Shown here in pieces: positions 22 through 18,264 of a DNA stretch of 64,000 nucleotides. The notes beneath the pieces are model-generated. The model ran no database searches. It had not been told where the DNA came from and saw only the letters and a list, made by a program, of their open reading frames with translations. The DNA is from Acidobacteriota bacterium. GTDB lineage: Bacteria; Acidobacteriota; Thermoanaerobaculia; Multivoradales; JBCCEF01. The position numbers and the translations under genes were made by a program. The stretch is taken from positions 17,364 to 81,363 of the forward strand of contig JBCCEF010000020.1 of assembly GCA_039030395.1 (NCBI GenBank), in the 5' to 3' direction. Position 1 is the first letter of the stretch, and each line of letters starts with the position of its first letter.

Positions 22-1761
22 TTGGCTGGGCTGTTTGGCGCCTCTTGCAAACTGCTCGAGTCGGTGGAGACAGAGGGTGATTCTGTGAGATCTCCGCCCT
101 TTCGCCGATCCCGATCGGTTGGCTCTCTGAGCCCTGAAGTAGAGCCTCTCGCTGGGCTGTATGCACATTTGACCGGTAGGACGTCCGCTCCGGCGGCCTC
201 CAGCCCGTCGATGAAGCCGGCCGTCTTGGTTGGATTCTTCCAGCACGCGACGCCGTCCTTCCTCCACCGGAGCTATCGAGATCTCGACGACAGCGCTCCC
301 GGCCTCCTGCTGGCGGAGGATGCCGAGGACCTTCGCCAGCAGATCTTGATTCGGTCGGCTGCCCTTTGCTTGAGCGGCTTCAATGAACCCTCCGATGCCG
401 CCATCTACGGCACCCTGCCGTTCGGCCGAGGGAGAGAGGAGGAGCAAGTTCTCGGCGGAAACGCGGAGCCAGCCGAGGTTCGAACTCTACTTGGGGGAGG
501 TGTCAATGTCCTGACCGTTGTCGCTCACGGTGACGGAGTCGACGCTTCACTCGGAGAGAAAAACACTCTCTGCCCCTACCCGCAGCGTCTGCGCGAGCTC
601 GGTGATCGCGAGGAGAGAAACGGCTGCCAGATCGAGAACTATTGTCACCGCTTGGAACTGCCGTACGACGAAGCGATCGGGGGAGAGGCGTTGCTTTCTC
701 CCGGTGACATCTCGGCGAAGGTACTGCTCTGGGCCTCCTGCCTCGGATTCCTTCCGGCGGGAACCGTGGTGGGCGCTGCCCATGGGCTGGGGCGCCGCTT
801 CCTGCAGAGCGACCGCATCGGAGCGGTGGTGACGGCGTGGCGAGTGCAGACCGTCGATCCTGTCTGGCTGGAATCGCTGGCCCGCCGCATCAATTCGGGG
901 GTCCCGGTCGGCCAAGCCTTGGCTCAGGCTCTGCGAGCGCGACCCGATCTCTCGGTCAACGGAGGCTACTGTCTTCTTGGAGATCCCGCTTTGCGAACAG
1001 GACGCCCCGGAGGCCCATCGGGGGCAGAAATCTTCGGTTCACGGCCGAAAATACGGGGAGCTATCGCAGCCGGTACCGGCAAAGATCCGAAGCCCGATGG
1101 CACTCCCTTCCTCATTCTCTGGTCTCAGGGTGACTTGGAGCAAGCCGATACTGCCGTGAGATCGCGCCTGCTCTACGAGATCGGCGAATATCGTCGGGCT
1201 CGGCAAGACGGCGGTGACCCGGAGCGGGGAGGCGACGCGCCGGGACCGCGCCTGCGGCAAGCAGCGATCGATCTTTGGTTCGGCCGAGGCCATCCGCTGG
1301 CCAGCGCCTACTGGCAAGAATTCGCCGCTACGGTTCCACTCGGCAACTTTCGGACCTGCCCGAGTTGCCGTCTTCCGGACAACCGGGTGTTCGCCGCCCG
1401 GGCGCGGTTCTCCGGCCGAGGAATCGCCGATCGGTTGGTGCTGAATTGCGCCGTGTGCGGCATTGTCACCGATGTTCCGGGGGGATTCGCCCTGGCGCTG
1501 CACCGAACAGAGACCGGCCTTCGATGGGTCGGCACCCGGCCGGCAAGGTGCTGGTCCGCTGGCGTTATCCTCAAGGCTCAACGGGTCGATCGCCGCCGCG
1601 CTCTGCCCTGGCCCGCCGACAGCGCGGGTCAACCCGATCGGGAGCTGAATTTGGTGCGCGTCGGGATGCGAGGCATCGTCGACGTGGGGGTATGCATGAT
1701 GGTGGAAAGCGAGGCCCTTTTTGCGTCGACCGTGGTTCGAATCACACCGCCGGACCTATAG
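22..1761 (+). CDS. hypothetical protein; possible clan-CD (caspase/gingipain/CHAT-like) cysteine peptidase with a C-terminal CxxC...CxxC zinc-ribbon-like motif. The frame is open back to position 1, so the 5' end may lie outside the window.
   Basis: This is a long ORF in a coding-like frame. A hydrophobic strand followed by His-Gly (VLTVVAHGDG) sits ~70 aa upstream of a hydrophobic strand followed by Cys (AKVLLWASCLGF), which matches the His/Cys dyad layout of clan CD peptidases. The motif CPSCRLPD...NCAVCGIV occurs near the C-terminus. The gene is convergent with the next gene, and their stop codons abut. Confidence 0.45.
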   Translation: MAGLFGASCKLLESVETEGDSVRSPPFRRSRSVGSLSPEVEPLAGLYAHLTGRTSAPAASSPSMKPAVLVGFFQHATPSFLHRSYRDLDDSAPGLLLAEDAEDLRQQILIRSAALCLSGFNEPSDAAIYGTLPFGRGREEEQVLGGNAEPAEVRTLLGGGVNVLTVVAHGDGVDASLGEKNTLCPYPQRLRELGDREERNGCQIENYCHRLELPYDEAIGGEALLSPGDISAKVLLWASCLGFLPAGTVVGAAHGLGRRFLQSDRIGAVVTAWRVQTVDPVWLESLARRINSGVPVGQALAQALRARPDLSVNGGYCLLGDPALRTGRPGGPSGAEIFGSRPKIRGAIAAGTGKDPKPDGTPFLILWSQGDLEQADTAVRSRLLYEIGEYRRARQDGGDPERGGDAPGPRLRQAAIDLWFGRGHPLASAYWQEFAATVPLGNFRTCPSCRLPDNRVFAARARFSGRGIADRLVLNCAVCGIVTDVPGGFALALHRTETGLRWVGTRPARCWSAGVILKAQRVDRRRALPWPADSAGQPDRELNLVRVGMRGIVDVGVCMMVESEALFASTVVRITPPDL

Positions 1762-3669
1762 AGATAAATCGTTGACGTTGTCGACCCCAAGGACCGCCGC
1801 GCACAACCGCGTCACGCCCAGGGCGAGTCCGACGCAAGGCGGTAGGCCGGCTTCGAGAATGCGAACGAAACTCTCGTCGTTCCGTTCGACCATCGGATGG
1901 CTGCGTGCGTGGTTCGCCAAGTCCTCCCGCACCCGCGAGGCGCTCAGCTCTTCGCGCACGATCTCGCCGCAGGTTTCGCCGTTCACCACCAGCCAGAACA
2001 GACTTGCTTCTTCTCCTGGCTGGGCCGACAGCGGACTCCGGTGCAGTGGGATGTCCGTCAGGACCACCATGCCGTCGAGCTGGCGTACCGCGCGCTTGGT
2101 CAGCGTCATCCTCCCCCGTTCGACCTCATCCGACTCCAGGCCCGCGGCTTCTAGAGCGTCCGCCACAGCTTCTCGGTCTTCCAGGTCGACGCCCAGGGTT
2201 TGATAACAGGCGTCCCGGGCGCTGACCTCGACGGCCTCCGGCAGGTCCGGCAAGAGGTTGCGGATCAGTCGCACGGCGAGGGCCGCCATGTCGTCCATCG
2301 AAGCGAGGGCGGCGTAGGCTTCGAGAAGGGTGAATTCCGGGCTGTGAGCGGCATCTCTTCCCTCGTTCCTGAAGCTCGGCCCGATCTCGAAGCATCGGGG
2401 GATCCCGCTGGCGATGGCCGCCTTCAGTCCCTTCTCGAAGGTCAGCCGGAGGTAGCCCCAGCGTTCGTCGGCCGCGACCCAGGTTCGAAAGGGCCGGGCT
2501 CGGCCACCGAAGAATCCTCGCTCCAGCACCGGGGTGGAGAGTTCGATGAAGCCGGCTTGCCGGAAGCCCGTGCGGAGGGTGGACAGAACCCCTGCCACGC
2601 CGTGGTTCAGGCGGTAGCGGTCGAAAAAGACCGGTGCCTCCTGGGGCGAAAGCTGGCAGGGTATGTGGCATAACATCTTGGTCACGAACACGGTCGGCGT
2701 GCCGGCCCGCGAGCGCTCCAGAGAGCCCTCGGTCACCAGGTAGTCGTGAATCCGAATCCGCTCGGTCCGAGCCTCTCCTGGAAGATTCGCCGGGAGTCCG
2801 ATCTGGAACCGCCGGCCGCCGGCCGCCAGATCGATGAAGGCGACGGTGCGGTGGCGCCGCAGGTGAACGACGCGACCCGCCACCACGGTCGAAGTCGATG
2901 TCGGATCCTCCAGCAGCTTCTCCGCGGCCTCCTCCGAAGGAAGGAGGTGCGGAGTGAAGGTCGCCGCCACCGGCTCGCTGTGGACGTCGGGAGGGAGGGC
3001 CGAGGAAGGTCGGGATGTAGCCCACTGCGGGTTCAGTTCCGGCAGAAACTCATGGACATCGCGGCGGCGGGGCGAGGCCGCCAAAAGCCGAACGGCCCAG
3101 TCGGTCAGGGCCTTTCGTCGATCGGGCGAGCAACCCTTCTGCGCCGCCATGCGGAGCCCGTGGCGGGCGGCGTAGAGCGGCAAGACGTTCGAGGAGGCAC
3201 CGTAGCCGGTGAGCAAGCCGGTCAACAGGTCGAAGGCCGATCGCCGCTTCTTGGGATGGTCGATCCACAGCAACTCCGCGGCCAGAGGGCCGAGGTCACC
3301 CTCCTTGACGCCTTCCCCCGCAGGGCTCAACGGCTTTCCTTCTCGCGCATCGGCGAACAGGCCCGGCAGGTCGGACTTGCCGTACCGGTAGACCGCTGGC
3401 TGTACACGGAGGCGCGACAGCCAAGCGGTCGAGAGTTGGAGAAGCGACCAGCGGTCTCCACCTTCGATCAACTCCTCCGGTAGAGAGAGCAGCAGGGCGG
3501 GCAATCCAGTCGGCCCGAGGGTCAGCCGATGCTCCTCGCCCTGCCGCAGTTCTTCACCCGTCTGGTGGAGGGTGCGCAACTGCCGCGCGAAGCTTCGGCC
3601 GAAGGCGTAGGGATCTTCCCCAGGATGTAAATGATCCATCATTATGTAGAGTAGCGGCAGAGCGTTCAT
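1756..3669 (-). CDS. divergent class IIb aminoacyl-tRNA synthetase paralogue (LysRS/AsnRS/AspRS-like) with a ~250-aa N-terminal extension of unknown fold
   Basis: An OB-fold anticodon-binding-like segment is present (VVAGRVVHLRRHRTVAFIDLAAGGRRFQIGL). Motif 1-like FIELSTPVLE, motif 2-like FEIGPSFRNEGRDAAHSPEFTLLEAYAA and motif 3-like GLPPCVGLALGVTRL are all present. The segment FWLVVNGETCGEIVREELS resembles the LysRS FElfi.g.E..n..sEl segment. The first ~250 residues match nothing I recognise. Confidence 0.8.
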   Translation of the reverse strand: MNALPLLYIMMDHLHPGEDPYAFGRSFARQLRTLHQTGEELRQGEEHRLTLGPTGLPALLLSLPEELIEGGDRWSLLQLSTAWLSRLRVQPAVYRYGKSDLPGLFADAREGKPLSPAGEGVKEGDLGPLAAELLWIDHPKKRRSAFDLLTGLLTGYGASSNVLPLYAARHGLRMAAQKGCSPDRRKALTDWAVRLLAASPRRRDVHEFLPELNPQWATSRPSSALPPDVHSEPVAATFTPHLLPSEEAAEKLLEDPTSTSTVVAGRVVHLRRHRTVAFIDLAAGGRRFQIGLPANLPGEARTERIRIHDYLVTEGSLERSRAGTPTVFVTKMLCHIPCQLSPQEAPVFFDRYRLNHGVAGVLSTLRTGFRQAGFIELSTPVLERGFFGGRARPFRTWVAADERWGYLRLTFEKGLKAAIASGIPRCFEIGPSFRNEGRDAAHSPEFTLLEAYAALASMDDMAALAVRLIRNLLPDLPEAVEVSARDACYQTLGVDLEDREAVADALEAAGLESDEVERGRMTLTKRAVRQLDGMVVLTDIPLHRSPLSAQPGEEASLFWLVVNGETCGEIVREELSASRVREDLANHARSHPMVERNDESFVRILEAGLPPCVGLALGVTRLCAAVLGVDNVNDLSL

Positions 3670-3866: not shown

Positions 3867-5180
3867 ATGATTCCTCGACGCCCTTCCGATCTCGACGACC
3901 CCAAGCTCGAGGCCGAGACCGCCCATCCGATCGCGGGCGCGGAGGCCGTCTGGGCCAACGTGCCGGCGCTGCGGCGTGACTTCGGCCACCTTCCCGATGC
4001 GCCGACGACGACAGACGGCTGGCACACCTGGCTGGCCCGGCAGGGCGGACTGATCTCCGCCACCCAGGCGGCGCAGGAAGTGGCCAATACCCGGATCCCG
4101 ATCCGCGACGTGGCGGTGACCGTGTACCGCCTGCCGCGCGGCGGCCGCGCCTTCTCCGTTCCCCTGCGCTCCGTTGCCAGCGACTACGTGGATCCCATCG
4201 AAGGCGGCGGCCTGCTCAGCCTGAAGGCGGTCGGGGTCAAGCCGGGGGTGGTGCCCGAAGCCAACCTATTCAACTACAGCAACGGACTGCAGTGGTTGGA
4301 AGGGGTTCTGCACGAAGTTCTGATCCAGCGGGTGGTCGAGAAGGTGCTGCGGTACGCCGGCAGTTCGGTGAACTGTTTGCCGGTGTACGGAGCCCTCGAT
4401 GGCGGGTTCGCCGTTCGCGACAGCGAGGGCAATACCTGGCCGGCGGGGATTTTGGTTCGGCAGGCCCACCGCCGGCAGGTCAAGGGCTGGGACTTTCCGC
4501 TGCTCGGCAGCCCAGGCCAACAGCTGATGCTCGACACCGAGCTGGAACTCCGGCGCTACGGCATCACCTCGACTTCCGACAAGGGAACCTTCCAGCTCAA
4601 GCGGCACGCGGACGGGAGACTGGAGTTTCTCTGTGCCCACCTCGGGGGATTCGTTCCGGGAGACACTCCCGCGGGGGTTGCCCGCGGCCTGTGGGAGCGG
4701 TTCCGGACCTACGCCGAACCCGGTGAAGATTTCATTCGCTTCAAGGGGGTCGCCGTCCAGTTCACCCGCTTCGAGGAAGGGGTTGAACCACTGCTGCTCG
4801 ACTTCGGTGGCTTCCGCTTCTCCGACCGCTTCACCGGGCCGCTCCTCAGCTTGGTGCTCCAGCAGCCGAGCAACTGGGGCGGCACGATCAATCCGGATAG
4901 CGATGCCTATGTGCAGCCGGATCCGAATCGTGCTCTCGATCCTCGGTACTGGCGGGCGGAACCACTGGAGACGCTTTCGAAGAAGCACCTGGAAGGTGCT
5001 TTGGAGGCCCTGCCGGAGAGGCTGCCGGGGCCACCGGACGATGTGCCCTACTCGCCGGTGGAACATGTGGTCTGCCGCCTGGCCCAGGGATTCACCGGCG
5101 GCACCCTCGCAAGACAGGAAGTGGCCTCCGCCTTGGATCACCTCCTGGCGCTGACCACCGAGAGCCTGGAACGAGGCTAG
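3867..5180 (+). CDS. hypothetical protein (437 aa), member of the RiPP island; function unknown
   Basis: The ORF has coding-like composition and an AGGAG motif 4 nt upstream of the ATG. Its TAG stop overlaps the TAG stop of the convergent dehydratase gene in the palindrome CTAG (5177-5180). There are weak kinase-like hints only (SLKAVGVK, LLLDFGG). Confidence 0.6.
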   Translation: MIPRRPSDLDDPKLEAETAHPIAGAEAVWANVPALRRDFGHLPDAPTTTDGWHTWLARQGGLISATQAAQEVANTRIPIRDVAVTVYRLPRGGRAFSVPLRSVASDYVDPIEGGGLLSLKAVGVKPGVVPEANLFNYSNGLQWLEGVLHEVLIQRVVEKVLRYAGSSVNCLPVYGALDGGFAVRDSEGNTWPAGILVRQAHRRQVKGWDFPLLGSPGQQLMLDTELELRRYGITSTSDKGTFQLKRHADGRLEFLCAHLGGFVPGDTPAGVARGLWERFRTYAEPGEDFIRFKGVAVQFTRFEEGVEPLLLDFGGFRFSDRFTGPLLSLVLQQPSNWGGTINPDSDAYVQPDPNRALDPRYWRAEPLETLSKKHLEGALEALPERLPGPPDDVPYSPVEHVVCRLAQGFTGGTLARQEVASALDHLLALTTESLERG

Positions 5181-7888
5181 GCCCTCAGGCAGGACGAGTC
5201 CAACACCAGTTCCGTCGCCCAGCGTTCCCCCCGGGCGTCCATCGGAAAGGCCTCGGGAGTGGGCAGCATTTCCTCGAACTCCACCGGCCCGCCGGCCCGT
5301 TCGACGATGCCTGCCAGCAGTTCGAGGAAAGTTGGCGACCGCAGGTCGAGAAACTGTGGTTTGAAGGTCTGCTTGTCTCCAAAGATCACCCGCTCGATGA
5401 CGAAGACTCGCGCCGCGACGCCGTGAAGGCGTCGCCAGCGATCGAGGCCGACACGCGCCTGGGCGCCGGGTCGCTGCAGAATGTCGGCAAGCTCCGCCGC
5501 CGGCACCACCCAACGCCGGCGCGCCAGCACCAACCGGTCGAGAACCACCCGGTCGAGGTGCGTGACCTGGCCGTCGGTGCGCCGCGGTTGGGGTGGCGTG
5601 CGACTGCGGATCTCACCGGGCCCGAACTGCGCTAGGAAACCGATCAACGACGGCATGAAGGCGAGGGTGGCGGCGCCGAGATGGAGCGGCAACAGGCGCC
5701 AGCCCGCCGCATCGACTAGGACCGGCAGGGAATCGTCGAAGCGCACCCGCAGGGAGGCGAGTGGAATTCCCCGGTCCACCGCTACCGGCGGCGTTTCTCC
5801 CGGTAGCCATAGGGCACGTTCGGTCGGAACCTCGTGAACGTTGAGCGTGTCACCCTGGCTTGAATAAAGGTCGACGGGCTCCCCTCCCAGTGGATTCTGA
5901 CCCAGCCTCCGCAGGCCGGTCCCCGGGCCCATGCGGAAACCGTTGGCGATGCACCGACGGTCGGCCCGTTCCAGAATTGGCAGAAGGCGGCCGGGATAGC
6001 GGCTGGTGCCCTCGAAGACCCGATGGGCCATCCAGCGCCCGCCTTCGCCGCCGATTGGCTGGGCGAACAGGCATGGGCCGGACAGCGGGGTCACCCAGCC
6101 CGGCAGCTCGTCTAGCAGGGCCTCGAGGCCTCGGCGAGACATCACCGCCTCGCCGGCCGTGCCGGCGTCGCCCAGGCTCATTTCCGGGAGCGCACGCCAC
6201 AGTTTCCGGCGCTGTTTCTGGAGTTTGTCGAGGTCAGCCACAGCCAGTGGGTTGAAGCCGTGTCCATCGCTCGGGTCGGCCCCTTCTCCCAAGGTCCGAC
6301 GCACCGCGGGCCAGAGCGGTAGGGCGTGCTCGAAGAGGTCGAGGGCGGCCACCTCGTCGCGTTCCGGCCATTCGCGGCGGGCGATTTCCCGTAGGGTCAG
6401 CAGAATGTCGTAGCGGGGAGAGAGAAGGTCGAGAACGCGGAACCACGGTTCCACCTGACGCAGCAAGATCGTCGCGTCCTCCGCTCGCCCCAACACTGGC
6501 GTCGGCGCATCGGCGGCGGCGAGAGCGACGTCTTCGTAGGTCTCCGACCGCTTGTAGCGATGTAGTGTTGTCGTCGCCGGATAGCCCGCCGCGCGTCCGG
6601 CGACAAGCCAAGCCTCTTCGACGGCCCGGTCGATCGAGCGGGCGGCATCGACCGGCTCCTCACAGGTGGCGAAGGCCGATTCCGCCGCCAGCCAGGTGGC
6701 GAAGGCGTCTTTCCCCGGATCGCCCTCGACTCCGCCAAGCCAGTGGGCGATGCTCGATTCGAGGCGCGGTCCGGCGCTTGTCCAGGGTGCGGTGAGGACC
6801 AACACGCCCGCTGCAACCAGCCGGTCGAGGAGGCTCCGCGAGCGTTCTCGATCGCCGCCGAACTCTCCGCACAGCTTGTCCTCCAGATCTCCCAGCGTCG
6901 AGGCATCGGCAACTGGCTGACGCAGCCACTCGACGATCGTCGGATCGATGGTCACCGTCGCCGGCAGCCCGCCGATGCGGCGCAGGCGCAAGTTCTGATC
7001 TTCGCTCTTTGGAAGCCAGCGCACCGGTTTAATCAACCGGTGGCGGTCACCCTCCAGGTGGCGAAGGGAATCGTTGAGCTGAACGGGCCTTTGGCGCAGA
7101 ACCTCCGGTGACGCGAGCCACGCCGCCTCGATCTGCTCGACCAGGTAGCGCCGTACCCTCACCAGCGACCGCTCCTCCCACTCCCCCGGACACCCGACCA
7201 GCTGGATTCCCTCCGGAGAGTCCGGCCGAGCGCTGCCTCCGGCAGGCGGCGACCAGCCGGCGCGAGTCCAGCGGGTGAAGGTCGAGAAGGGCGAAAGCTT
7301 GAAGACGCCGCGGCTCCAGTAGCGCACCAGGCTGGCGCGGGCGCGTCGTGCTTTACGGCCGCGGCCCTGCAGCAGGGTCTTTCGCACCGCCGCCAGGCGC
7401 GAAGCCAGCGGTTGCGACGAGAGAGCCAGGGCGCGGCGAAAGGCAGGCTGATCGAGGGTGGAAACGAGAAAGGCGTCCTCGGCGCGCGAGCACTGGCGGT
7501 AGGTGGCATCGAGGTCGGAGTCGACCGCGTGGAGGTGCGTTGCCAGCGAGGCGAGCTGGCTGAGAGCACTGCGCGTCGAATCCGGCAGGACCTCCGACGG
7601 CATCTCCCGCCAGTCGCCGCCCGGGGGGCGACCGTTGAACAGGTCGCGCTTGAGCCGCAGCAAAGGGCTCCGGTGCTCCGGCGGCGCATTGCCCACGGCG
7701 ATGAAGAGTGCTTCGATCAGACCGGCACGCCGGGCATCGAGCTGCCGCACGAGATCTCGCCGCCTAGCCAGCAGCGGCTCGAGCCGTCGGCCGTCGAATG
7801 GGTCGGCGGGCGATGCCGACTGGCCGGCGATGCGTGCCGCCAGCAAAGGCGGCTGCTGAGACTCGTCCGTCGTCTCGATGTCCTTCAC
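5177..7888 (-). CDS. lanthipeptide/thiopeptide-type dehydratase, N-terminal (glutamylation, Lant_dehydr_N-like) protein of a split LanB; it could alternatively be a small-LanB/PEARL-type enzyme
   Basis: The protein is ~904 aa from GTG 7888. LanB N-domain hallmarks are present: LLRLKRDLFNGR, a SPFSTFT segment equivalent to the RxTPFGLF motif, GTSRYPGRLLP equivalent to G.SGRF, and a C-terminal KPQFLDLRSPTFLELL...GERWATELVLD end typical of the N-domain. No FF.RY..P.HLRLR elimination domain is present. The GTG start overlaps the upstream TGA (GTGA). The 185 codons upstream in the ORF-track entry are Arg/Pro-rich and overlap gene 7885-8934 in another frame. Confidence 0.85.
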   Translation of the reverse strand: MKDIETTDESQQPPLLAARIAGQSASPADPFDGRRLEPLLARRRDLVRQLDARRAGLIEALFIAVGNAPPEHRSPLLRLKRDLFNGRPPGGDWREMPSEVLPDSTRSALSQLASLATHLHAVDSDLDATYRQCSRAEDAFLVSTLDQPAFRRALALSSQPLASRLAAVRKTLLQGRGRKARRARASLVRYWSRGVFKLSPFSTFTRWTRAGWSPPAGGSARPDSPEGIQLVGCPGEWEERSLVRVRRYLVEQIEAAWLASPEVLRQRPVQLNDSLRHLEGDRHRLIKPVRWLPKSEDQNLRLRRIGGLPATVTIDPTIVEWLRQPVADASTLGDLEDKLCGEFGGDRERSRSLLDRLVAAGVLVLTAPWTSAGPRLESSIAHWLGGVEGDPGKDAFATWLAAESAFATCEEPVDAARSIDRAVEEAWLVAGRAAGYPATTTLHRYKRSETYEDVALAAADAPTPVLGRAEDATILLRQVEPWFRVLDLLSPRYDILLTLREIARREWPERDEVAALDLFEHALPLWPAVRRTLGEGADPSDGHGFNPLAVADLDKLQKQRRKLWRALPEMSLGDAGTAGEAVMSRRGLEALLDELPGWVTPLSGPCLFAQPIGGEGGRWMAHRVFEGTSRYPGRLLPILERADRRCIANGFRMGPGTGLRRLGQNPLGGEPVDLYSSQGDTLNVHEVPTERALWLPGETPPVAVDRGIPLASLRVRFDDSLPVLVDAAGWRLLPLHLGAATLAFMPSLIGFLAQFGPGEIRSRTPPQPRRTDGQVTHLDRVVLDRLVLARRRWVVPAAELADILQRPGAQARVGLDRWRRLHGVAARVFVIERVIFGDKQTFKPQFLDLRSPTFLELLAGIVERAGGPVEFEEMLPTPEAFPMDARGERWATELVLDSSCLRA

Positions 7889-8934
7889 GGAGGGGTGAGG
7901 TGGATCCTTTGGAAAGGTTCCAGGTTCTCGGCCGCGGCGCGGACGATGAGATGCAGCGCGAAGGCCTGATCGAGCCGTTTGAGGCCGATGAGGTTTGCAA
8001 AGCCGTGCAGAACCTTGATCAAGGGTGGAAAAAACGGCTGGGCGGCGAAGGGATCGAGCTGAATACCCGAGTCGTCGTAGCGGCCGTCGACGTGGCGAGC
8101 GATCCGCAGGAGGGTCGCGCCCCAGGGGGTATCCGGTACCGGCTCCCGCGGTCCCTCCACGGCGATCGATTCGCGCAGAACCTCGACGGCGCCGGCGTTG
8201 CGCGACGCCAACCGTTCGAGGTTCTCGATGTACTCCTGGCCCTGGTCTTCCTCTTTTCCTTCGCGCAGCAGCGGTGAACGGATCAACCAGTCGCGGTGGT
8301 ACGCGGCGTAGGCGGCGGTTTCCTGGGGGGAGAGGCCGAGCGCGTAGGCCGCCTGGATCATCGCCCGCCACATCAAGCGCTGGCGTCGCGGATGATCGAT
8401 CACCGCCCGCTGATCCGCCAGCTCGGAGAGAAACATCGAGCATCCCCGATCGAAGGCGCGCACCATCAGTCCGCGGTAGGCGGGGTCTTCCAGGTACGGT
8501 TCACCGCCGAAGGAGATCTTGGTCAAGCGGTAGTCGGTGAAGTCGAGGGACCGGTCCGGCGCCGGCTCGTCGCCAAAGTCCCTACCGTCGATCGGCGGCG
8601 ACTCCGACCGGGAGGGCCGGCGAGCCTCGTCGTCGGCCGGCGGCAGTCGGCCGAAGAACCCTTCGGTCAACGACAGCATCCGGGAGCGAATAGCGTCGAC
8701 CTCCGATTCTGGAAGGTGGATGCGAATCTTGAGGTGCTCGCCATTGCGGGCATAGCGCATAGCCCACAGTAGCGCCTCGTCGGGTAGAGCCTCGAGTTCG
8801 CTGCGCAGGGGCACCAAAACCTCGAGCGCTGCGGAGTCCAAGACGCTCGCGGCATAGAGATTGGCGGAAAGGTTGGGGTCGGTGGACGCGCCGCCTTCGC
8901 GAGTGCCTCTCGGAGGTTGCGCCGCCTCTACCAC
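7885..8934 (-). CDS. SpaB_C / Lant_dehydr_C-like protein, copy 1 (divergent), translationally coupled to the dehydratase N-domain gene
   Basis: It carries LLWAMRYARNGEHLKIRIHLPE, a divergent version of the W.F.RY.D.g.HLRLR signature of the LanB elimination / thiopeptide-type bacteriocin biosynthesis domain. The start is GTG, preceded by AAGGAGGAGA. There is a 4-nt GTGA overlap with 5177-7888. Confidence 0.7.
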   Translation of the reverse strand: MVEAAQPPRGTREGGASTDPNLSANLYAASVLDSAALEVLVPLRSELEALPDEALLWAMRYARNGEHLKIRIHLPESEVDAIRSRMLSLTEGFFGRLPPADDEARRPSRSESPPIDGRDFGDEPAPDRSLDFTDYRLTKISFGGEPYLEDPAYRGLMVRAFDRGCSMFLSELADQRAVIDHPRRQRLMWRAMIQAAYALGLSPQETAAYAAYHRDWLIRSPLLREGKEEDQGQEYIENLERLASRNAGAVEVLRESIAVEGPREPVPDTPWGATLLRIARHVDGRYDDSGIQLDPFAAQPFFPPLIKVLHGFANLIGLKRLDQAFALHLIVRAAAENLEPFQRIHLTPP

Positions 8935-9155
8935 GGCACTTCTCCTCCTTGGCTTCCCGGCCTACAGGGAGCATTGAAGTCGCCAAAAGAATATTTCTTC
9001 ATCGACTTGCTAGGTTATCAGGAGATTTTTTGATATGGTTGTATGGATAAATACAGAGGTCAGTAGTAAAACAACGCGTGTTCGGCTTCGTAGCCGACCG
9101 GTGTTCGCGAGCCGCGATAGCTGCTCATTCTCGAAATCGACTAAGGAGGTTGTTT
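8935..9155. promoter_or_regulatory. AT-rich divergent intergenic region between the SpaB_C/dehydratase operon (-) and the precursor operon (+); likely divergent promoters/operators
   Basis: This is the most A/T-rich stretch in the left part of the window (..aaaagaatatttcttcatcgacttgctaggttatcaggagattttttgatatggttgtatggataaatacag..). It contains TTGCTA/TTGATA-type hexamers and an imperfect inverted repeat AAGTCG-N-CGACTT. The exact -35/-10 elements could not be fixed by eye. Confidence 0.45.
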
Positions 9156-9308
9156 ATGTCAGATGACGTTAAGAAGGGCCTGGACAAACTGGAGAACGTC
9201 GACATCACCGAGATTTCGGACGAGGATCTCGAAGGAGTGTCCGGTGGCGCCGAGATCGACGAAGGCGACTGCGACTCGTGGTGGTGCTGTTCGAACACCA
9301 ACGCATAA
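9156..9308 (+). CDS. RiPP precursor peptide (50 aa): MSDDVKKGLDKLENVDITEISDEDLEGVSGG / AEIDEGDCDSWWCCSNTNA
   Basis: A perfect AAGGAGG sits 6 nt upstream of ATG 9156. The leader is acidic and ends in the double-Gly-type motif LEGVSGG. The C-terminal 19 aa contain 3 Cys and 3 Ser/Thr. The gene lies directly between dehydratase-family genes. The upstream 26 codons of ORF 9078-9308 lack an RBS and look non-coding. Confidence 0.85.
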   Translation: MSDDVKKGLDKLENVDITEISDEDLEGVSGGAEIDEGDCDSWWCCSNTNA

Positions 9309-9329
9309 GCTGATTGGACAACCCGCAAG

Positions 9330-9372
9330 CGGCCCGCCCGCGTCCTCGACGCTGCGCGGGCCGTTTCCTTTT
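9330..9372 (+). terminator. GC-rich stem-loop plus T-rich tail immediately after the precursor gene (candidate attenuator / partial terminator)
   Basis: cggcccgc (9330-9337) pairs with gcgggccg (9356-9363). An inner stem gcgtc/gacgc is present, and the structure is followed by TTTCCTTTT (9364-9372). It sits between the precursor gene and the next biosynthetic gene. Confidence 0.5.
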
Positions 9373-9432
9373 GCGGCGAATCTCCAACGGGCATCCTCCG
9401 CAGGCGCCAGTCCAAGGAGCCTTCCCTTCCCT

Positions 9433-10491
9433 ATGACCATCCGCAATGGTCTCGCCGCCGGACACTGGACCGGCCATCACCTCCACTACCATGGGGAGCA
9501 GGACCTGCTTCTCGCTTCCCTCCTGATCCCGATCCTCCACCGGTGGTTTGCCGCCGGTTCCCTCGAACGCTTTTTCTTTGTCCGCTATGCCCTCGGCGGA
9601 CCCCACATTCGGCTGCGCTGCCGCTGGCGGGATACGAACGCCGAAGGCCGCTTTCAGGACGAACTCACCCGCGTCGCCACCCGCTTCTTCGAGCGGCACC
9701 CCTCCGCCTCGAGCTGGTCGCCGGACACCATCCGGCAGCGCAACCGAGGCATTCTTGCGCACGATCCCAGTGAAGTGGACGACGTGGTCTATCCGGACCA
9801 CTACGTGCGGCAGGTGATTTTCGAACCGGAGACCGACCGCTACGGTGGCGAGGCGCTCGTCGCCGCCTCGCTGGAGGTCTTTTGCCTCTCGAGTCTAGCC
9901 GTCTGTGACGCCTTGGCCAGTGCGGAGTTCTCCCCGAAGGAATCGAAATACGCCCTCCAAGTACTCGCCGCTCAAGCGGTGGCGAGCGTCGAGGATACGC
10001 TCGACTTCAGCCGCTTGATGGAGAGCCTCGGTGAGCGAGCACGGCGGCGCTTTCCGGCGGCCCTCGACCAGGCGGACGAACGGTTCGCCCAGACGGGCCG
10101 GGCCTTCTCTCGCGGTCTTTACGGTCAGCTCCGTGGCCCAGCTTCCGACGCCGTGGACCGTCTCCAGGCGGGACTCCGGCTGTTGCGCCGGCAGTTGGGC
10201 GAGGTCGGCGATTCGGCATCGACGGTCCTGATGAGCCAGCTCCACATGACGGCGAATCGCCTTGGCCTGTCGAACCTCCGCGAAGTCTATCTGTTGCGGC
10301 TTCTCGAGTGCGCCGCGGGCCAGTGGCTGGAGGAGGATCTTGCCCTGCCGCCGACCTCCGGCCAGCCATCGGCGGGCGCTCCCGATTCGCTGGCTGAACT
10401 CGTCAACGGAGGACTCGACCGCTTCGCCTCGTCCGGTGACTCCAGTACACTTCAGCCGGTGGATTCTCGAGCACAGCGGAGGGGACCATGA
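9433..10491 (+). CDS. SpaB_C / Lant_dehydr_C-like protein, copy 2 (most canonical; likely the glutamate-elimination partner)
   Basis: It carries ERFFFVRYALGGPHIRLRCRW (compare NisB FFLRYTDPKPHIRLRIK) and FEPETDRYGGEAL (compare NisB YDQEVERYGG). The start is taken at ATG 9433; the upstream part of ORF 9163-10491 overlaps the precursor gene and is Arg/Pro-rich. The stop overlaps the next start (ATGA). Confidence 0.8.
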   Translation: MTIRNGLAAGHWTGHHLHYHGEQDLLLASLLIPILHRWFAAGSLERFFFVRYALGGPHIRLRCRWRDTNAEGRFQDELTRVATRFFERHPSASSWSPDTIRQRNRGILAHDPSEVDDVVYPDHYVRQVIFEPETDRYGGEALVAASLEVFCLSSLAVCDALASAEFSPKESKYALQVLAAQAVASVEDTLDFSRLMESLGERARRRFPAALDQADERFAQTGRAFSRGLYGQLRGPASDAVDRLQAGLRLLRRQLGEVGDSASTVLMSQLHMTANRLGLSNLREVYLLRLLECAAGQWLEEDLALPPTSGQPSAGAPDSLAELVNGGLDRFASSGDSSTLQPVDSRAQRRGP

Positions 10492-11723
10492 CAGGGTCGG
10501 TAGAGACCATCTTTACGGCTGAACGGTTGTTTTCTCCTCTCGGGCTCAGCACTTTTGTCGCCCAGTATTGGCAGTCGCAACACCTGCTGCTGCAGCGTGA
10601 TCACTCCTCTCACTACGGCGACCTGTTTCGCCTTCGAGACATCGACCGCTACCTGACGCTGGCGGCGGAAACAGGGCTGGGCAACATCTCCCTCATCCGG
10701 GACGGCAAGGTCACCCGAAAGTTGCGGCCAAGGGGACTCGACGTCCGACAGCTCTACTCCGCTCTAGGCAACGGCTCGACCCTTCTCTTCGAGCAGATCG
10801 ATCACCTCTGGATGCCGGTGCGTGAGCTGGCGGCGGACCTCGCTCGGTCACTCAGTGCGCGAGTGAAGGTCAACGTGTACCTGACGCCCCCGGGCCGCCA
10901 GGGCGCACCGATTCACCCGGACATTCAAGATGTTTTCGTCCTGCAGCTCGAAGGGGCCAAGGAATGGCACTTGTATGGCGAGTCCATGTACGAGCCGGTG
11001 GAGACCACCGAATACCTGACGGAACTCGGCTACAGAAGGCCGGTCATGCCGAAGGAACCCGAGGCCATGCCGCCGGTGACCCTCGAGCCCGGCGATCTGC
11101 TCTATATGCCGAGGGGCCTCCTCCACCGCGCCGTAGCCCCGGCGGATCGCCCGTCGCTCCACCTGACCGTGTGCGCAACGCCGATCTACTGGGTGGATTT
11201 CCTCAAGGTGGCCATTGAGGCTGCTTCGCTGGAGCGTCCGGAACTCGCCGCGGCTCTGCCTCCGGGATTCGAATGGGCCGGCGTCGACGCCACTCTGCAG
11301 GAAGCCTTCGAGAGCGCCGTCGATCTGGTGCGGCGGGGGACTTCCTTCGCTACCGTGGCTCAGGCTTTTGCTCAGCGGACCGAGAAGCTTCCCGGAGATG
11401 GCCATTTCCATACCCTCCTGCACCTCGAAGAGATCACCGCAGAGACCGTCCTTGAAGCTCGGACCGGCTCCCCCTGCGAGATTGTCCACCGGGGCGACAA
11501 GGTCGAACTGCGGTGCGGTTCCATCAAGCTCCAGGGACCCGCCGGTGTGGCACAGGCCTTCGAACGGATACGCGATCGGCCGCGGCTACGGGTGGCGGAG
11601 TTCTCCGAAGACTTGAGTGCAGAGGCGAAGGTTTCCCTCGCCCGGCGCCTGGTGTCCGAGGGACTGCTGCGGGTCGCCGGCCGTGCCGTCGCAACCGCTG
11701 AGGGCGCCGTGAAGACAGGGTAG
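10488..11723 (+). CDS. JmjC / cupin-4 (ribosomal-oxygenase-like) Fe(II)/2-oxoglutarate-dependent oxygenase
   Basis: The segment GAPIHPDIQDVFVLQLEGAKEWHLY contains the HxD facial-triad residues and the DVF.lQ.eG.K.W signature. PGDLLYMPRGLLHRAVA contains the distal His. There is an ATGA overlap with the upstream gene. The last codons and the stop lie inside the transposon's left inverted repeat. Confidence 0.8.
   Translation: MTGSVETIFTAERLFSPLGLSTFVAQYWQSQHLLLQRDHSSHYGDLFRLRDIDRYLTLAAETGLGNISLIRDGKVTRKLRPRGLDVRQLYSALGNGSTLLFEQIDHLWMPVRELAADLARSLSARVKVNVYLTPPGRQGAPIHPDIQDVFVLQLEGAKEWHLYGESMYEPVETTEYLTELGYRRPVMPKEPEAMPPVTLEPGDLLYMPRGLLHRAVAPADRPSLHLTVCATPIYWVDFLKVAIEAASLERPELAAALPPGFEWAGVDATLQEAFESAVDLVRRGTSFATVAQAFAQRTEKLPGDGHFHTLLHLEEITAETVLEARTGSPCEIVHRGDKVELRCGSIKLQGPAGVAQAFERIRDRPRLRVAEFSEDLSAEAKVSLARRLVSEGLLRVAGRAVATAEGAVKTG
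11712..11716. repeat. 5-bp target-site duplication AAGAC (left copy)
   Basis: An identical AAGAC directly abuts the outer end of both terminal inverted repeats (11712-11716 and 18260-18264). Confidence 0.85.
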
Positions 11724-11760
11724 CGGGCAGAAAGCTGCAACCGTATACGGTAGGGCGCTC
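11717..11760. repeat. Tn3-family left terminal inverted repeat (IR-L)
   Basis: The sequence is AGGGTAGCGGGCAGAAAGCTGCAACCGTATACGGTAGGGCGCTC. The reverse complement of 18216-18259 is AGGGTACCGGGCAGAAAGCTATAACCGAATACGGTAGGCCGCTC. Confidence 0.85.
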
Positions 11761-11973
11761 CCCCGAGCGGTCCGGGAAGTTCTTGGAGTCTTTTCGACGC
11801 GCCCAGGGTCCCTTTCTTGCCGGCCCTGGCGGGCTCCTTCTTTGCCGGGCGAAGTTGCTGAATTGGCTCGAATCATGCGACACATCGCGTTGGAGTAGTC
11901 TGATGACATGGGTGGTTAGTGCTATATTTCGCGGGAATTCTCTTGCTTAGGAAATTCGTGCCGGGATTGTCAC

Positions 11974-13572
11974 ATGTCGGTACTCAAGGCCCCGGTAGAC
12001 TGTCGAATGCCGCAAACCTCCAACGCTTCACGAGCCACAGTCGAAACTGCTTCGCCGCGTGGCAGCGCCCTGCTGTCGGTATTGCTTGTCATAAGCCTCG
12101 CGGGGATGGCGCCAGCTCTAGCGCAGGAAGCCGGTTGCCCGACCAACGTACCGGCGACTGTGATTCAGAGCCTCGAGAACGCCGAGATCCGCGCCCAGGC
12201 AGGGCAGGCGCCGAACTGGGCTCAGATAGGCGGTGACTACCAAAGGGCTCTTCGGCTGGTCCAGGCTCAGATTCGAGAGCACGAGAGCAAGCTGCGCCAA
12301 TACGAAGCCGGGATCGCGCAAGGTAACGGTGCGCAGTGGAGGAAGGCCGCCTCCCTGACGCGAGACGGTCTCAAACTCAACCGAGCCGCAGCCCAAGTCC
12401 TCGCCTGTCACGCTCGGCGGTCGCATGGAGGCGCCACAGGCGCCCCCGGCTCGAGGTCATCGCAAGAGACTCTCTTCGGCGAGACCGTCCGTCCGGTTGG
12501 CAGGGAGCCGAGGTCCCGAGGCTGGGGCCCCCGCCGCTCCCAAACCGACGATCTACCGCGGGCGGACCTGGGTGAGGCTTTCGACACAGCCCTGGATGAG
12601 CTGCTAGAGGGCCTCCTGGACTGGGAAAACGACCCAGGAGAAGAGACCGAATCAGGGGCCAACTCCGGTCCCGAAACCGGCTGTAAGGCTCAGGTCACTG
12701 CGCGACTCAAGACTGACAACACGGGACAAGTCTTCCTTGACGTTCGCGCCAGCTCTGATGAACCGAGTGCCAACGTCTCCTTTCAGCTTTCCAACCCAGG
12801 CCTCACAGAGCGGCCCTTCGGAGATCCGGTGTTCTTGGAAACCACCGAAGGGTTCGCCGAGCTGTCCATCCCACTGGCGCACGCCAGGCGCGATGCTGCG
12901 ACCGAGTCCTCCCCATGCAGCAATCTCGAAGAAGCCAGCCGGCAGCTTCGAGAGAACTGGACTCGGCTCTCAACCAAGTACGACGTTCTGGACACCTACC
13001 TGTCAGAGGTCAGCCGCTATCGCGAGGAGTTCTCAGAGACAGAGACATGGGTAGCTGTGGGCTATATCGCTCTCGCGTTTAAGCAGGTTGCCGAGACCCT
13101 GGAGGTGTACCTAATGGGTTCGAGCCTCAGCACCTGCGTCGGCGGCTTGGCGAACGCCACGATCTCCGAGATTGTCTCCCCGGCCTCCTGCCTCGCCGGC
13201 GGGAACTGCCTGTACGACTTCCTAAACAAGCACGCAAGTCTATGGCTGGAGGCAGCCTCCTGCACTGGATCACAGATCGCCGCGACCATCTCCGGCATCA
13301 AGGGTCGACTGGACTTTGTGATCAGCACCGCTGAGAACTACTCGCACCTGCAGGATATCAACGAGTTCAGGGACATCGTCCGCGGGAACATGCTTCGTCT
13401 CGAAGGCGAGCTAAGGAAGGGTGACGCCAAGCTGAAGCAGCTCGCGAACAGTCGCCGCGAGGTTGAAGAGGCGATACAAGCTCTCCACTCTTCGTGCCGA
13501 TCCTCGGCCCTTGAGGGGATCGCAGTGAAAGTCCTTTCCTGTCAAGTCAAGCTTCCGGAACCGCTCGGATAG
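11974..13572 (+). CDS. transposon passenger 1: secreted hypothetical protein (532 aa)
   Basis: The N-terminus is signal-peptide-like (ALLSVLLVISLAGMAPALAQEAG). Coiled-coil-like segments are present. GC content is lower than in the host flanks. No recognisable domain was found. Confidence 0.6.
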   Translation: MSVLKAPVDCRMPQTSNASRATVETASPRGSALLSVLLVISLAGMAPALAQEAGCPTNVPATVIQSLENAEIRAQAGQAPNWAQIGGDYQRALRLVQAQIREHESKLRQYEAGIAQGNGAQWRKAASLTRDGLKLNRAAAQVLACHARRSHGGATGAPGSRSSQETLFGETVRPVGREPRSRGWGPRRSQTDDLPRADLGEAFDTALDELLEGLLDWENDPGEETESGANSGPETGCKAQVTARLKTDNTGQVFLDVRASSDEPSANVSFQLSNPGLTERPFGDPVFLETTEGFAELSIPLAHARRDAATESSPCSNLEEASRQLRENWTRLSTKYDVLDTYLSEVSRYREEFSETETWVAVGYIALAFKQVAETLEVYLMGSSLSTCVGGLANATISEIVSPASCLAGGNCLYDFLNKHASLWLEAASCTGSQIAATISGIKGRLDFVISTAENYSHLQDINEFRDIVRGNMLRLEGELRKGDAKLKQLANSRREVEEAIQALHSSCRSSALEGIAVKVLSCQVKLPEPLG

Positions 13573-13671
13573 GAGGCCATGCGGTTCATCGAGCTTGTCT
13601 TGATGCGTCCCCGGTCTCGCCGCCTACCCGTTCCCATACAGCCAGGTAGAAACAACACTGGAGGAGCGCGC

Positions 13672-15162
13672 ATGTATACCATTACGAGACAATCGAACCT
13701 TCGGCCAGTCCTGGATCTCGCTCTTGCGGCGCTTCTGCTCGCTTTCTCCGCGACGTCGGCGCTCGCGGAGGATCCAATTGAGGCTCGATACCAAGGTGGC
13801 GACTACAGTGGTGCGATCGAGTTTGCCGAGAATCGCCTCAAAGAGGCCCCGGAGGATCTGCGTGCCCGCAAGCTGATGCTCGCTGCGCTGCTCAAGCTTG
13901 GGGATGCTCATTTCGCTCGGACGCTACTGGATGACCTGCCCAACGACCGTGCGCATGAGCGCTTCAAGCAAAGTGCAGAGAGAATCCTTGAGCGGTTTGA
14001 GGCTAGGGAGCTGGACGAGGCCAAGATCATCGCCGCTCTTGCGCACTTCCAGACCGACTCGGCAATAGACGTGATCCGTGAATCCCATTTTACGCAGCTG
14101 GAAAAGAAACTCCTAGAGTCGCAGATTCTGGCCCTTTCTGGGCGCTTTTCCGAGGCGCTTGGGGCCATCTCAGGCGCTGAGGTTTCGAGCTACTCGCAGA
14201 AGAAGCTTCTAGACGACCTCACATCGCGGACTCGGGAGAAGGCCCAGCGTTTTGAAGAGTTGTGGGACAGCGAGATTCGCTTTTTTGTAGATTCGCCAGA
14301 GTCGTCTGCCCACTGGGGCTACTGCACCAAGTCAATACCTAACTACACCCTCGAAGACTTCGTCAGAGTTGTTGACGATGTGGCACAGCTCGCACCCCTA
14401 GACGGCCGAGTGCTAGACCTTATCTTCTTGTCTTCGCTCTTCGTCACGGACGACTACGAGCCTGTGCGGAGACTGGGCGAGGCCATCTTGTCGGCGAAGG
14501 GTAGCCTAGGCTTTTGGGCGCACTCCAGAGACTTCCACTACCGATTGGTCGTTGACAGTCGACAGCGGACAGTGAGCATCCAAGAGCAGCGGCCAATCGA
14601 AACGAGCTTTCGGCAAAATTTGATGGGCACTGGATGCAAGAAATCGAAGCAGTCCTACGGGAATCCATTAAAGCCGTATCGGGTCTCGTTCGATGCAATC
14701 CGAAGTGTGGAGCAGCACAATGGCGGAAACAACAGCTTTGATGACAGTTTCATAGGCTTCAACGGCCAACACGAATCCGGTAACCTCAAGGTTGCCACGC
14801 TCGTCTTCTGGGAGTGGGGCCGAGCCGCGGAAAGTGCGGTCTACCGGAAGCTGGGGCGGTTCTTCGTGGACCTTTTTGGGGTCTCTGCTGCCAAACTGGT
14901 TCCGGAGCGCCAGGACCTGGGCTCTGGTGCCCTAGCGCTAGTGTTCGGAGCTGCCTACGGCCTTCAGGCCCTGAACCAGGGGACCTCCTTCGACATAGCG
15001 GCGTTTCAGCAGGACTTGATGGACGGCGCAAAGCTGCTGGAGGAAGCGAACGCCCAGAACCGGGAGCGGCGGATCGCCTGGATGCAGCACCTCAAGTCTG
15101 AGGAGATTCTCAGCATCGACGAGTCGCGATTCGAGTCCTTAGAAGACCTTCTCGGGAGCTAA
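13672..15162 (+). CDS. transposon passenger 2: secreted hypothetical protein with a TPR-like N-terminal region
   Basis: GGAGGA lies 6 nt upstream of ATG 13672. A signal peptide is present (LALAALLLAFSATSALAEDP). Helical-repeat-like sequence follows (EAPEDLRARKLMLAALLKLGDAHFAR). Confidence 0.6.
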   Translation: MYTITRQSNLRPVLDLALAALLLAFSATSALAEDPIEARYQGGDYSGAIEFAENRLKEAPEDLRARKLMLAALLKLGDAHFARTLLDDLPNDRAHERFKQSAERILERFEARELDEAKIIAALAHFQTDSAIDVIRESHFTQLEKKLLESQILALSGRFSEALGAISGAEVSSYSQKKLLDDLTSRTREKAQRFEELWDSEIRFFVDSPESSAHWGYCTKSIPNYTLEDFVRVVDDVAQLAPLDGRVLDLIFLSSLFVTDDYEPVRRLGEAILSAKGSLGFWAHSRDFHYRLVVDSRQRTVSIQEQRPIETSFRQNLMGTGCKKSKQSYGNPLKPYRVSFDAIRSVEQHNGGNNSFDDSFIGFNGQHESGNLKVATLVFWEWGRAAESAVYRKLGRFFVDLFGVSAAKLVPERQDLGSGALALVFGAAYGLQALNQGTSFDIAAFQQDLMDGAKLLEEANAQNRERRIAWMQHLKSEEILSIDESRFESLEDLLGS

Positions 15163-15433
15163 TACGATTTCGCAGACCGTAGAGAGAGCGAAGTCGAGGC
15201 CGCTCTCCGAGGCTCTGCACCAGTCCAGAGAGTCCGTGACGGGGTATGATTGCGCGGTACGATCGCAAAAGCGAAATCGACACCCCGCAACCGAGATGCC
15301 CAGCGACTCGCCAAGATCCTTCGGGACGGAGGCTACTCCTATGACCAGGCGAAGCATCTGGTCGCCGAGGCGCGACGCCTGGTCGGCCTGAAGCCGCCGC
15401 GTCGACGCAAAGGCAGCGTTGATCGCTTGACCC

Positions 15434-18217: not shown

Positions 18218-18259
18218 GCGGCCTACCGTATTCGGTTATAGCTTTCTGCCCGGTACCCT
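18216..18259. repeat. Tn3-family right terminal inverted repeat (IR-R)
   Basis: See IR-L. It begins immediately after the tnpA stop (TGA 18215-18217). Confidence 0.85.
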
Positions 18260-18264
18260 AAGAC
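18260..18264. repeat. 5-bp target-site duplication AAGAC (right copy)
   Basis: It is identical to 11712-11716 and directly abuts IR-R. Confidence 0.85.

Follow-up and report, generated by a model that had tools for sequence, protein, structure and literature searches.

Results

The 64,000-nucleotide stretch analysed here, referred to as the window (positions 17,364 to 81,363 of contig JBCCEF010000020.1 from an Acidobacteriota bacterium), carries a biosynthetic cluster for a peptide that is made on ribosomes and modified after translation (RiPP). The cluster belongs to an undescribed split-LanB family, whose distinguishing features are a conserved core motif that is new and two SpaB_C (PF14028) subfamilies that are likewise undescribed. 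It combines a single LanB N-domain protein (LanB-N) with three SpaB_C paralogs, called copies 1, 2 and 3. Copy 2 has the residues of a canonical glutamyl lyase, and beside it in the same cluster stand two further conserved subfamilies with active-site constellations of their own. The recurrence of this trio together with a conserved Cys-Ser…Cys-Ser motif in the precursor peptides points to undescribed enzyme chemistry and not to redundancy. We tentatively propose a division of labour between one glutamylation enzyme and the three paralogs, in which copy 3 would be a macrocyclase; we rate this scheme slightly short of an even chance.

The features of the cluster and its surroundings are presented in Table 1. 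Two recruitments of the SpaB_C fold are known, as pyridine synthases and as syn-lyases. Literature searches on pyritides, split LanB, glutamyl lyases and PF14028 yielded no description of the present family. They yielded no described family with three functionally distinct PF14028 proteins per N-domain either, in agreement with an initial annotation of this DNA, made from the letters alone, which had regarded three copies as more than described families have. The three reading frames and the sequence strings quoted in that annotation were confirmed, and only one Lant_dehydr_N protein was found in the window by a Pfam scan, as it had claimed. This protein, LanB-N, matches the Pfam model with E 2.5e-15, and its family profile matches TbtB (6ec7, E 3.3e-60) and the goadsporin split-LanB protein (9jhq, E 5e-33).

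Table 1. Features of the cluster and its neighbours, with positions in the window
Feature	Position	Strand	Description
LysRS-like paralog	1756-3669	-	divergent class II lysyl-tRNA synthetase (LysRS)-like protein, 637 aa, extended at the N-terminus by ~250 aa
p437	3867-5180	+	437 aa, probably an accessory gene
LanB-N	5177-7888	-	split-LanB, TbtB-like, predicted glutamyl-tRNA-dependent glutamylation enzyme, 903 aa
Copy 1	7885-8934	-	divergent SpaB_C paralog, 349 aa
Precursor gene	9156-9308	+	50 aa: leader MSDDVKKGLDKLENVDITEISDEDLEGVSGG, core AEIDEGDCDSWWCCSNTNA
Hairpin	9323-9377	+	GC-rich, then a U-rich stretch; 3' of the precursor gene, ahead of copy 2
Copy 2	9433-10491	+	predicted glutamyl lyase of canonical type (elimination protein), 352 aa
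JmjC gene	10488-11723	+	JmjC-type oxygenase, predicted accessory tailoring enzyme; Pfam JmjC_2, E 2.5e-22
Tn3-family transposon	11717-18259		between the JmjC gene and copy 3
Copy 3	18296-19222	-	SpaB_C paralog without the lyase Arg residues, 308 aa
p249	19239-19988	-	conserved family-specific protein, 249 aa

Catalytic residues of the three paralogs

In the characterized lyases the glutamyl carboxylate is bound by two Arg residues, a further Arg makes the α-proton more acidic and a His serves as the base (PMC9011353). In NisB numbering, Arg784 and Arg786 were taken from 'PHIRLR' and Arg826 from 'ERYGG' of the profile alignment. NisB was unaligned over the His961 region, and the motif 'LHMT.NRL' was taken as the equivalent by way of the MibB alignment, so that each His961 position given below is a putative one. 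The census of catalytic residues covered 61 orthologs of copy 1, 23 of copy 2 and 24 of copy 3. A TbtD fragment used as query in a large protein search gave no match. For comparison of hidden Markov model (HMM) scores, a TbtC-like lyase and a TbtD-like pyridine synthase were used as references; both are encoded on a Streptomyces plasmid (L016), in a cluster of thiomuracin type.

Copy 2 matches PF14028 with E 4.7e-34 and 119 bits, above the gathering cut-off of 24.4 bits, and the lyase-type NCBIfam model TIGR03891 with E 3e-27. A search of the PDB with its single sequence gave no match; the family profile was required, and this matches MadB, MibB and NisB. Residues Arg60, Arg62, Arg136 and His271 correspond to NisB Arg784, Arg786, Arg826 and His961, and all four are invariant in every complete ortholog (21-23 counted). 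The family HMM gives 83 bits on the thiopeptide lyase versus 34 on the pyridine synthase. With its full NisB-type residue set, copy 2 is the predicted working lyase of the cluster. In two related loci (L003, 15459-17150, and L005, 14961-16664) the C-terminus of copy 2 is fused to p249, which suggests that the two proteins act jointly.

Copy 1 lies below the PF14028 gathering cut-off (E 0.0032, 18.1 bits), and its family profile gave no match in the PDB by sequence. It is nevertheless a true SpaB_C homolog, because its family profile aligns with that of copy 2 over the full length (hhalign probability 97.9%, E 3.8e-13) and because every significant PDB match found by Foldseek with its AlphaFold (AF2) model (predicted local distance difference test score, pLDDT, 86.9) is a SpaB_C protein, namely TbtD, PbtD, TsrL, MadB, MibB or NisB. 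Lys69 and Arg71 stand at the Arg784 and Arg786 positions in 59 of 59 orthologs, His67 and His73 are kept in the same 59, and His310, at the His961 position, is present in 53 of 55. The Arg826 position is occupied by Ser, Thr, Val, Ala or Pro and is basic in none of the 59 orthologs, which leaves the NisB-type lyase set of copy 1 incomplete. Further invariants are Asp116, Asp119, the motif YHRDW, Asp294, Lys307 and His328. The family HMM of copy 1 scores 34 bits on the thiopeptide lyase and 9.5 on the pyridine synthase, and TIGR03891 is matched by 10 of 11 family members. Since the Lys/Arg pair and His310 are conserved and the HMM favours lyase over pyridine synthase, copy 1 may still be a lyase.

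The GTG start codon of LanB-N overlaps the TGA stop codon of copy 1 (GTGA); this was read directly from the sequence and bears out the coupling described initially. LanB-N also lies directly downstream of copy 1 in most related loci, and copy 1 has the appearance of a second lyase-like partner for LanB-N, one of non-canonical type. A second, non-canonical lyase within one cluster has a precedent in CoiSA and SptBb (PMC9011353, PMC9486935, PMC9890492). In enzymes of this type the Arg pair is kept, the His is absent, Leu is found at the Arg826 position and Lys replaces a Tyr of NisB (PMC9011353). Copy 1 resembles them in its basic pair and its non-basic Arg826 position, but it has His310, and where SptBb-type lyases have the conserved Lys it has a Tyr, Tyr61, assigned to that position by residue spacing (K92/L142 versus Y776/R826) and not by an alignment with SptBb. 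The coi and spt clusters, which are of the class I lanthipeptide kind, likewise contain more than one PF14028 protein per glutamylation domain (CoiSA-ED, SptBb). However, they are actinobacterial, always include LanC and have two paralogs where the present family has three, copy 3 being without counterpart there.

Copy 3 is recognized by PF14028 above the gathering cut-off (E 6.5e-8, 33.5 bits), and its family profile aligns with those of copy 2 and copy 1 with probabilities of 97.6% and 92%, respectively (hhalign). The significant PDB matches of its AF2 model (pLDDT 92.6) are all SpaB_C proteins, the same set as for copy 1, with TbtD and PbtD at the top. Phe59, Leu61 and Gly134 stand at the Arg784, Arg786 and Arg826 positions. 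In the orthologs these positions are mostly Phe, Leu or Val, and Gly or Asp, and are basic in 0 of 24. Only His278 remains of the NisB-type lyase set; it occupies the His961 position and is kept in 21 of 22 orthologs. Copy 3 also has a new group of invariants: Asp52, Arg54 (24 of 24 orthologs), Asp114, Arg274 and Gln283, with His57 also kept. The family is a discrete one; a search of 1.84 billion proteins gave 144 representatives at E<=1e-30. Because the Arg pair is replaced by Phe and Leu, copy 3 could hardly hold the glutamyl ester, and a non-elimination role is well supported by these residue patterns. A zinc site formed by His102, Cys105, Cys111 and Asp114 was considered and rejected, as Cys105 is present in only 28 and Cys111 in only 31 of 36 family members.

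It is important to note that the three proteins have distinct residue sets; they share no common catalytic set, and copies 1 and 3 are strongly constrained. The initial annotation had described one canonical and two divergent copies, and the differences indeed fall in the elimination residues which it had proposed to check: copy 2 retains all four, copy 1 lacks Arg826 and copy 3 keeps the His only. Its kinship of the divergent copies with PF14028 also holds, both having the SpaB_C fold in the AlphaFold and Foldseek comparison, and the differing residues speak against three identical, redundant enzymes. The non-elimination roles that it thought probable for both divergent copies are well supported for copy 3, in which all three Arg are lost, and less so for copy 1, which keeps the Lys/Arg pair and the His.

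These residue sets could be explained by three glutamyl lyases of different site or stereo selectivity, as an extension of the two-lyase logic of CoiB/CoiSA. SptBb and CoiSA-ED are active without the His and Arg826 of NisB (PMC9011353, PMC9890492), and copy 1 still has its basic pair and His. In addition, the second Ser of the core motif is the C-terminal residue in L003 and L005, and SptBb gave no elimination at a C-terminal Thr (PMC9890492), which makes a specialised lyase conceivable. On the other hand, copy 3 lacks both carboxylate-binding residues, which even SptBb has (PMC9011353), Tyr61 of copy 1 would take the place of the SptBb-type Lys, and the motif consists mostly of Ser residues, where E/Z stereochemistry plays no part. 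Three lyases appear quite improbable.

Copies 1 and/or 3 could also be non-catalytic scaffolds that bind the leader or core or assemble with LanB-N and copy 2. The SpaB_C fold of TbtD binds a leader peptide, according to the title of PDB 5wa4, and the likeness of copy 3 to the pyridine synthases is found mainly in the N-terminal third. The translational coupling of copy 1 to LanB-N and the loss of the classical catalytic Arg residues would also suit a scaffold. However, in both proteins the strand and helices of the former active site carry a large number of polar residues that are invariant, which exceeds the usual needs of a binding scaffold, and we give this explanation the same low probability as three lyases.

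Related loci and the transposon

With copies 1 and 3 as search seeds about 65 related loci were retrieved, from soil metagenomes and metagenome-assembled genomes (MAGs) of Thermoanaerobaculia/Acidobacteriota and Longimicrobiaceae. They were annotated with family HMMs built here. The whole module was found in ~15-20 soil metagenome or MAG loci and recurs as (LanC)-copy 1-LanB-N-precursor-p249-copy 3-copy 2, an order that is conserved across two phyla. Of the 19 loci whose flanks are long enough, 14 have LanB-N and all three copies. Upstream sequence is available for 29 related loci, and 13 of these contain LanC. The protein p249, detected with its own HMM in most related loci, has no sequence match in Pfam, NCBIfam or the PDB and forms three tandem genes in L012 and L019.

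Several loci depart from this arrangement. One Thermoanaerobaculia MAG (L013, DASYJD010000071) has two adjacent subclusters, the first with LanB-N, copy 2, two p249 genes and another precursor type (…TCTCSNCPTFTCP…), and the second with the full trio and a motif-bearing precursor. In L008 (6500-9900) a 36-aa stub of copy 1 and a split LanB-N adjoin a copy 3 that is intact and a precursor with the motif; there follow genes for GFA, a phosphodiesterase, two radical SAM proteins, TldD/PmbA, LanC and a second LanB-N. This locus is either a decaying or a hybrid cluster. L023 and L054 have copy 1 and p249 without an HMM-detectable LanB-N within ~10 kb, and an 851-aa open reading frame (ORF) upstream in L054 might be a very divergent N-domain.

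In the window, copy 3 is separated from the rest of the cluster by a bona fide Tn3-family element, as had been suggested initially, and all three hallmarks of such an element were found. The inverted repeats of 51 nt (11717-11767 and 18209-18259) are 88% complementary, a perfect 5-bp target duplication AAGAC is located at 11712-11716 and 18260-18264, and the transposase (15434-18217) matches DDE_Tnp_Tn3 with E 7e-106. Two cargo ORFs (11974-13572 and 13579-15162) have hydrophobic N-terminal stretches; one gave a weak TPR match and the other no Pfam match. The GC content of the element is 0.60-0.61, lower than that of its surroundings. The JmjC gene had its final three codons replaced on insertion; the original reading frame could be reconstructed, and excision in silico restores the JmjC stop and leaves ~15 bp between it and the stop codon of copy 3. 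The same genes, without a transposon, are found on a related metagenome contig, L001. The cluster is contiguous, and the transposon is all that separates copy 3 from the rest.

The transposon inside the cluster and the sub-threshold Pfam score of copy 1 could be taken as signs that the extra copies are decaying, functionless duplicates. However, the ORFs are intact, their models have pLDDT values of 87 and 93, the transposon is intergenic and clips only three JmjC codons, and 61 and 24 orthologs with invariant residues are found, in a gene order kept in two phyla. Decay is effectively refuted by this conservation and is hardly worth considering further.

The precursor peptide and its core motif

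An AAGGAGG Shine-Dalgarno sequence is located 6 nt ahead of the ATG of the precursor gene. The leader is of the double-glycine type and is shared with the precursors of the related loci. The core of the window precursor, AEIDEGDCDSWWCCSNTNA, contains Ser/Thr and Cys, as in class I lanthipeptides. The motif C-[S/T]-x3-C-[S/T] is common to the precursors, and its version in the window is C-D-S-W-W-C-C-S. Thr replaces a motif Ser in L007, L046 and L050. The Ser-x4-Ser spacing is conserved and equals that of Ser1 and Ser6 in MroA1 (pyritide A1; PMC9247985).

The motif is present in 15 loci with copy 3 and missing in 3 subclusters where copy 2 is found, whether or not copy 1 is there too, and copy 3 is absent (Fisher p 0.009; the numbers are small and uncorrected for relatedness). 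The Cys residues outside the motif average 2.2 in LanC-positive loci versus 0.6 in the others (Mann-Whitney p 0.006), which fits a role of LanC in forming extra rings and a different handling of the motif. C39-peptidase ABC exporters adjoin at least 7 related clusters. Together with the conserved double-Gly leader they suggest that the peptide is exported with its leader in place. This would exclude a leader-ejecting reaction and allow a non-aromatising one.

The hairpin between the precursor gene and copy 2 has a folding energy of -37.7 kcal/mol (z -3.4), and none of 200 shuffled sequences was as stable. It resembles a terminator or attenuator, and as an attenuator it may set the ratio of precursor to enzymes.

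Comparison of copy 3 with the pyridine synthases

An alternative is a cluster of pyritide or thiopeptide type. Here LanB-N and copy 2 would correspond to MroB/TbtB and MroC/TbtC, and copy 3 would act like TbtD, MroD and TsrL as an aza-[4+2] cyclase, producing a 14-membered pyridine or dehydropiperidine macrocycle from the two dehydroalanine (Dha) residues of the motif. Besides the spacing, identical to that in MroA1 (PMC9247985), TbtB is closest to LanB-N and the second Ser is preceded by Cys, as in thiopeptides. The sole PDB match of the copy 3 family profile is PbtD (E 1.7e-5, N-terminal region), and among the NCBIfam models 31 of 36 family members match the pyridine synthase model NF045556 best, all the matches falling far short of its cut-off and being limited to the N-terminal third. 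The motif 'RGPH' is common to copy 3, TbtD, PbtD and a Streptomyces homolog, and all of these have lost the glutamate-binding Arg.

However, copy 3 itself scores only 35.7 bits with NF045556, over the N-terminal ~90 residues, and the equivalog cut-off is 325 bits. Residue Tyr319 of TbtD is needed for aromatisation (PMC12018205). It is absent from copy 3 in either of two possible alignments, the position being taken by a His or by an Ile/Val two residues ahead of this His. The copy 3 family HMM scores lyase and pyridine synthase almost equally (24.6 versus 22.1 bits), and the Foldseek order of TbtD and PbtD above NisB does not discriminate, because copies 1 and 3 give the identical order. As for the peptide, Thr may replace a motif Ser, the conserved Cys ahead of the first Ser is left unexplained by such a reaction, and the attachment of the leader at export would exclude leader ejection, though not a non-aromatising variant. 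The suggestion of a pyridine synthase role in the initial annotation survives for copy 3 as a lean towards PbtD and NF045556, but the score below the cut-off and the missing Tyr do not agree with it. We consider a pyritide- or thiopeptide-like pathway unlikely, although somewhat less so than three lyases or scaffolds.

Proposed division of labour

In the scheme that we prefer, LanB-N would glutamylate Ser/Thr residues of the core and copy 2 would eliminate glutamate to give Dha or dehydrobutyrine (Dhb). Copy 1, translationally coupled to LanB-N, would be a second, non-canonical lyase-like subunit bound to it, with a different site or stereo selectivity or a part in substrate handling. Copy 3, which retains the putative Cα acid/base His, could act after dehydration as a macrocyclase on Cys-Dha-x3-Cys-Dha. 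Its chemistry would be LanC-independent thioether (lanthionine) formation, the microscopic reverse of the elimination. A lyase and a lyase-derived cyclase in one pathway have a precedent (PMC9247985).

A non-aromatising aza-[4+2] reaction of copy 3 between the two Dha residues, with Ser-x4-Ser as in pyritide A1, is possible. Thioether formation is favoured for the following reasons. All four motif residues are conserved, with Thr able to substitute for Ser; the leader is apparently kept until export and LanC tracks the Cys residues outside the motif; and the retained His would be suited to Cα protonation in a Michael addition.

Several observations weigh against the proposed scheme. In 13 of 29 loci the trio stands beside LanC, and such loci have no strict need of a separate thioether cyclase. 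For the same reason copies 1 and 3 cannot be simple substitutes of LanC, and the idea of the initial annotation that they explain its absence is not supported as stated. Two loci with copy 3 and LanC (L007 and L046) have the variant C-T-x5-C-S/T in place of the motif, and p249 is missing from L011 and L028. An obvious metal site for the activation of thiols is lacking in copy 3. The co-occurrence statistics are biased, copy 1 or copy 3 having been the bait, and their numbers are small. The roles of the copies are assigned from residue patterns and gene neighbourhood.

A stronger claim would be that copy 3 is a new enzyme class, either a glutamyl-lyase fold run in reverse as a metal-free, LanC-independent thioether cyclase or a non-aromatising aza-cyclase, which turns the conserved heptapeptide Cys-Dha-x3-Cys-Dha into a compact unit of two rings, and that copy 1 is a third mechanistic type of glutamyl lyase, dedicated to LanB-N; this we regard as doubtful. 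Chemistry different from that of the known members would mean a new enzyme for peptide macrocyclisation and a new compact ring scaffold, and a defined set of ~150 orthologs could be mined in soil phyla that have been little explored (Acidobacteriota, Gemmatimonadota). With five or six genes and a 50-aa precursor, the system is small enough for direct heterologous reconstitution.

Comparison with known systems

The thiopeptide and pyritide clusters (TbtB/TbtC/TbtD and MroB/MroC/MroD) are similar in several respects. They likewise have a split LanB (the match of LanB-N to TbtB has E 3e-60), a stand-alone canonical lyase and a SpaB_C paralog without the glutamate-binding Arg, and MroA1 has two Ser residues spaced as in the core of the window family. 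However, they have two SpaB_C proteins and not three. The present family also differs in its double-Gly leader, in the peptidase-containing ATP-binding transporters (PCATs) of its relatives, in the conserved Cys residues of the motif, in LanC, found in ~45% of relatives, and in the extra 249-aa protein. In contrast to thiopeptide clusters, Pfam detected neither YcaO nor other azole-forming enzymes among the window ORFs scanned.

Thiostrepton-type clusters carry additional LanB-like genes.

Canonical class I lanthipeptide systems (NisB/NisC, MibB, MadB) share with this cluster the glutamyl-tRNA-dependent dehydration, predicted here, and the full NisB residue set found in copy 2. The core is likewise rich in Ser/Thr and Cys, and genes for LanC and a C39 exporter occur in many relatives. 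Here, however, LanB is split and a divergent C-type gene precedes the N-domain gene. Two additional SpaB_C subfamilies and p249 are present, and LanC is missing from about half of the relatives and from the window ORFs scanned with Pfam.

Neighbouring genes

Orthologs of the JmjC gene are found in L001, L011, L028 and L046. The LysRS-like protein scores 147 bits against a LysRS model with a cut-off of 468, and its best LysRS match in the PDB has 105 bits. Its gene is located two genes away from an aminoacyl-tRNA-dependent enzyme, an arrangement that recalls the peptide aminoacyl-tRNA ligases (PEARLs), homologs of LanB-N which take amino acids from aminoacyl-tRNA and add them; these are likewise stand-alone enzymes of the LanB N-type. 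In contrast to PEARLs, LanB-N is conserved together with copy 2, a canonical lyase that is complete, so that glutamylation with subsequent elimination is implied. The PEARL reading, or that of another unusual aminoacyl-tRNA, was therefore rejected, the LysRS-like gene being absent from all related loci. At the left edge of the window lies a 579-aa ORF (22-1761, plus strand), for which neither a match in Pfam or NCBIfam nor a homolog among the related loci was found.

The protein p437 gave no sequence match in Pfam, NCBIfam or the PDB. It shows 36% identity to the product of a 452-aa gene in L001 (15485-16843), where it accompanies the JmjC gene, and it is also found in L050. A stretch 'LKxxGxxP' in p437 is, by eye, reminiscent of SelO or kinase-like proteins.

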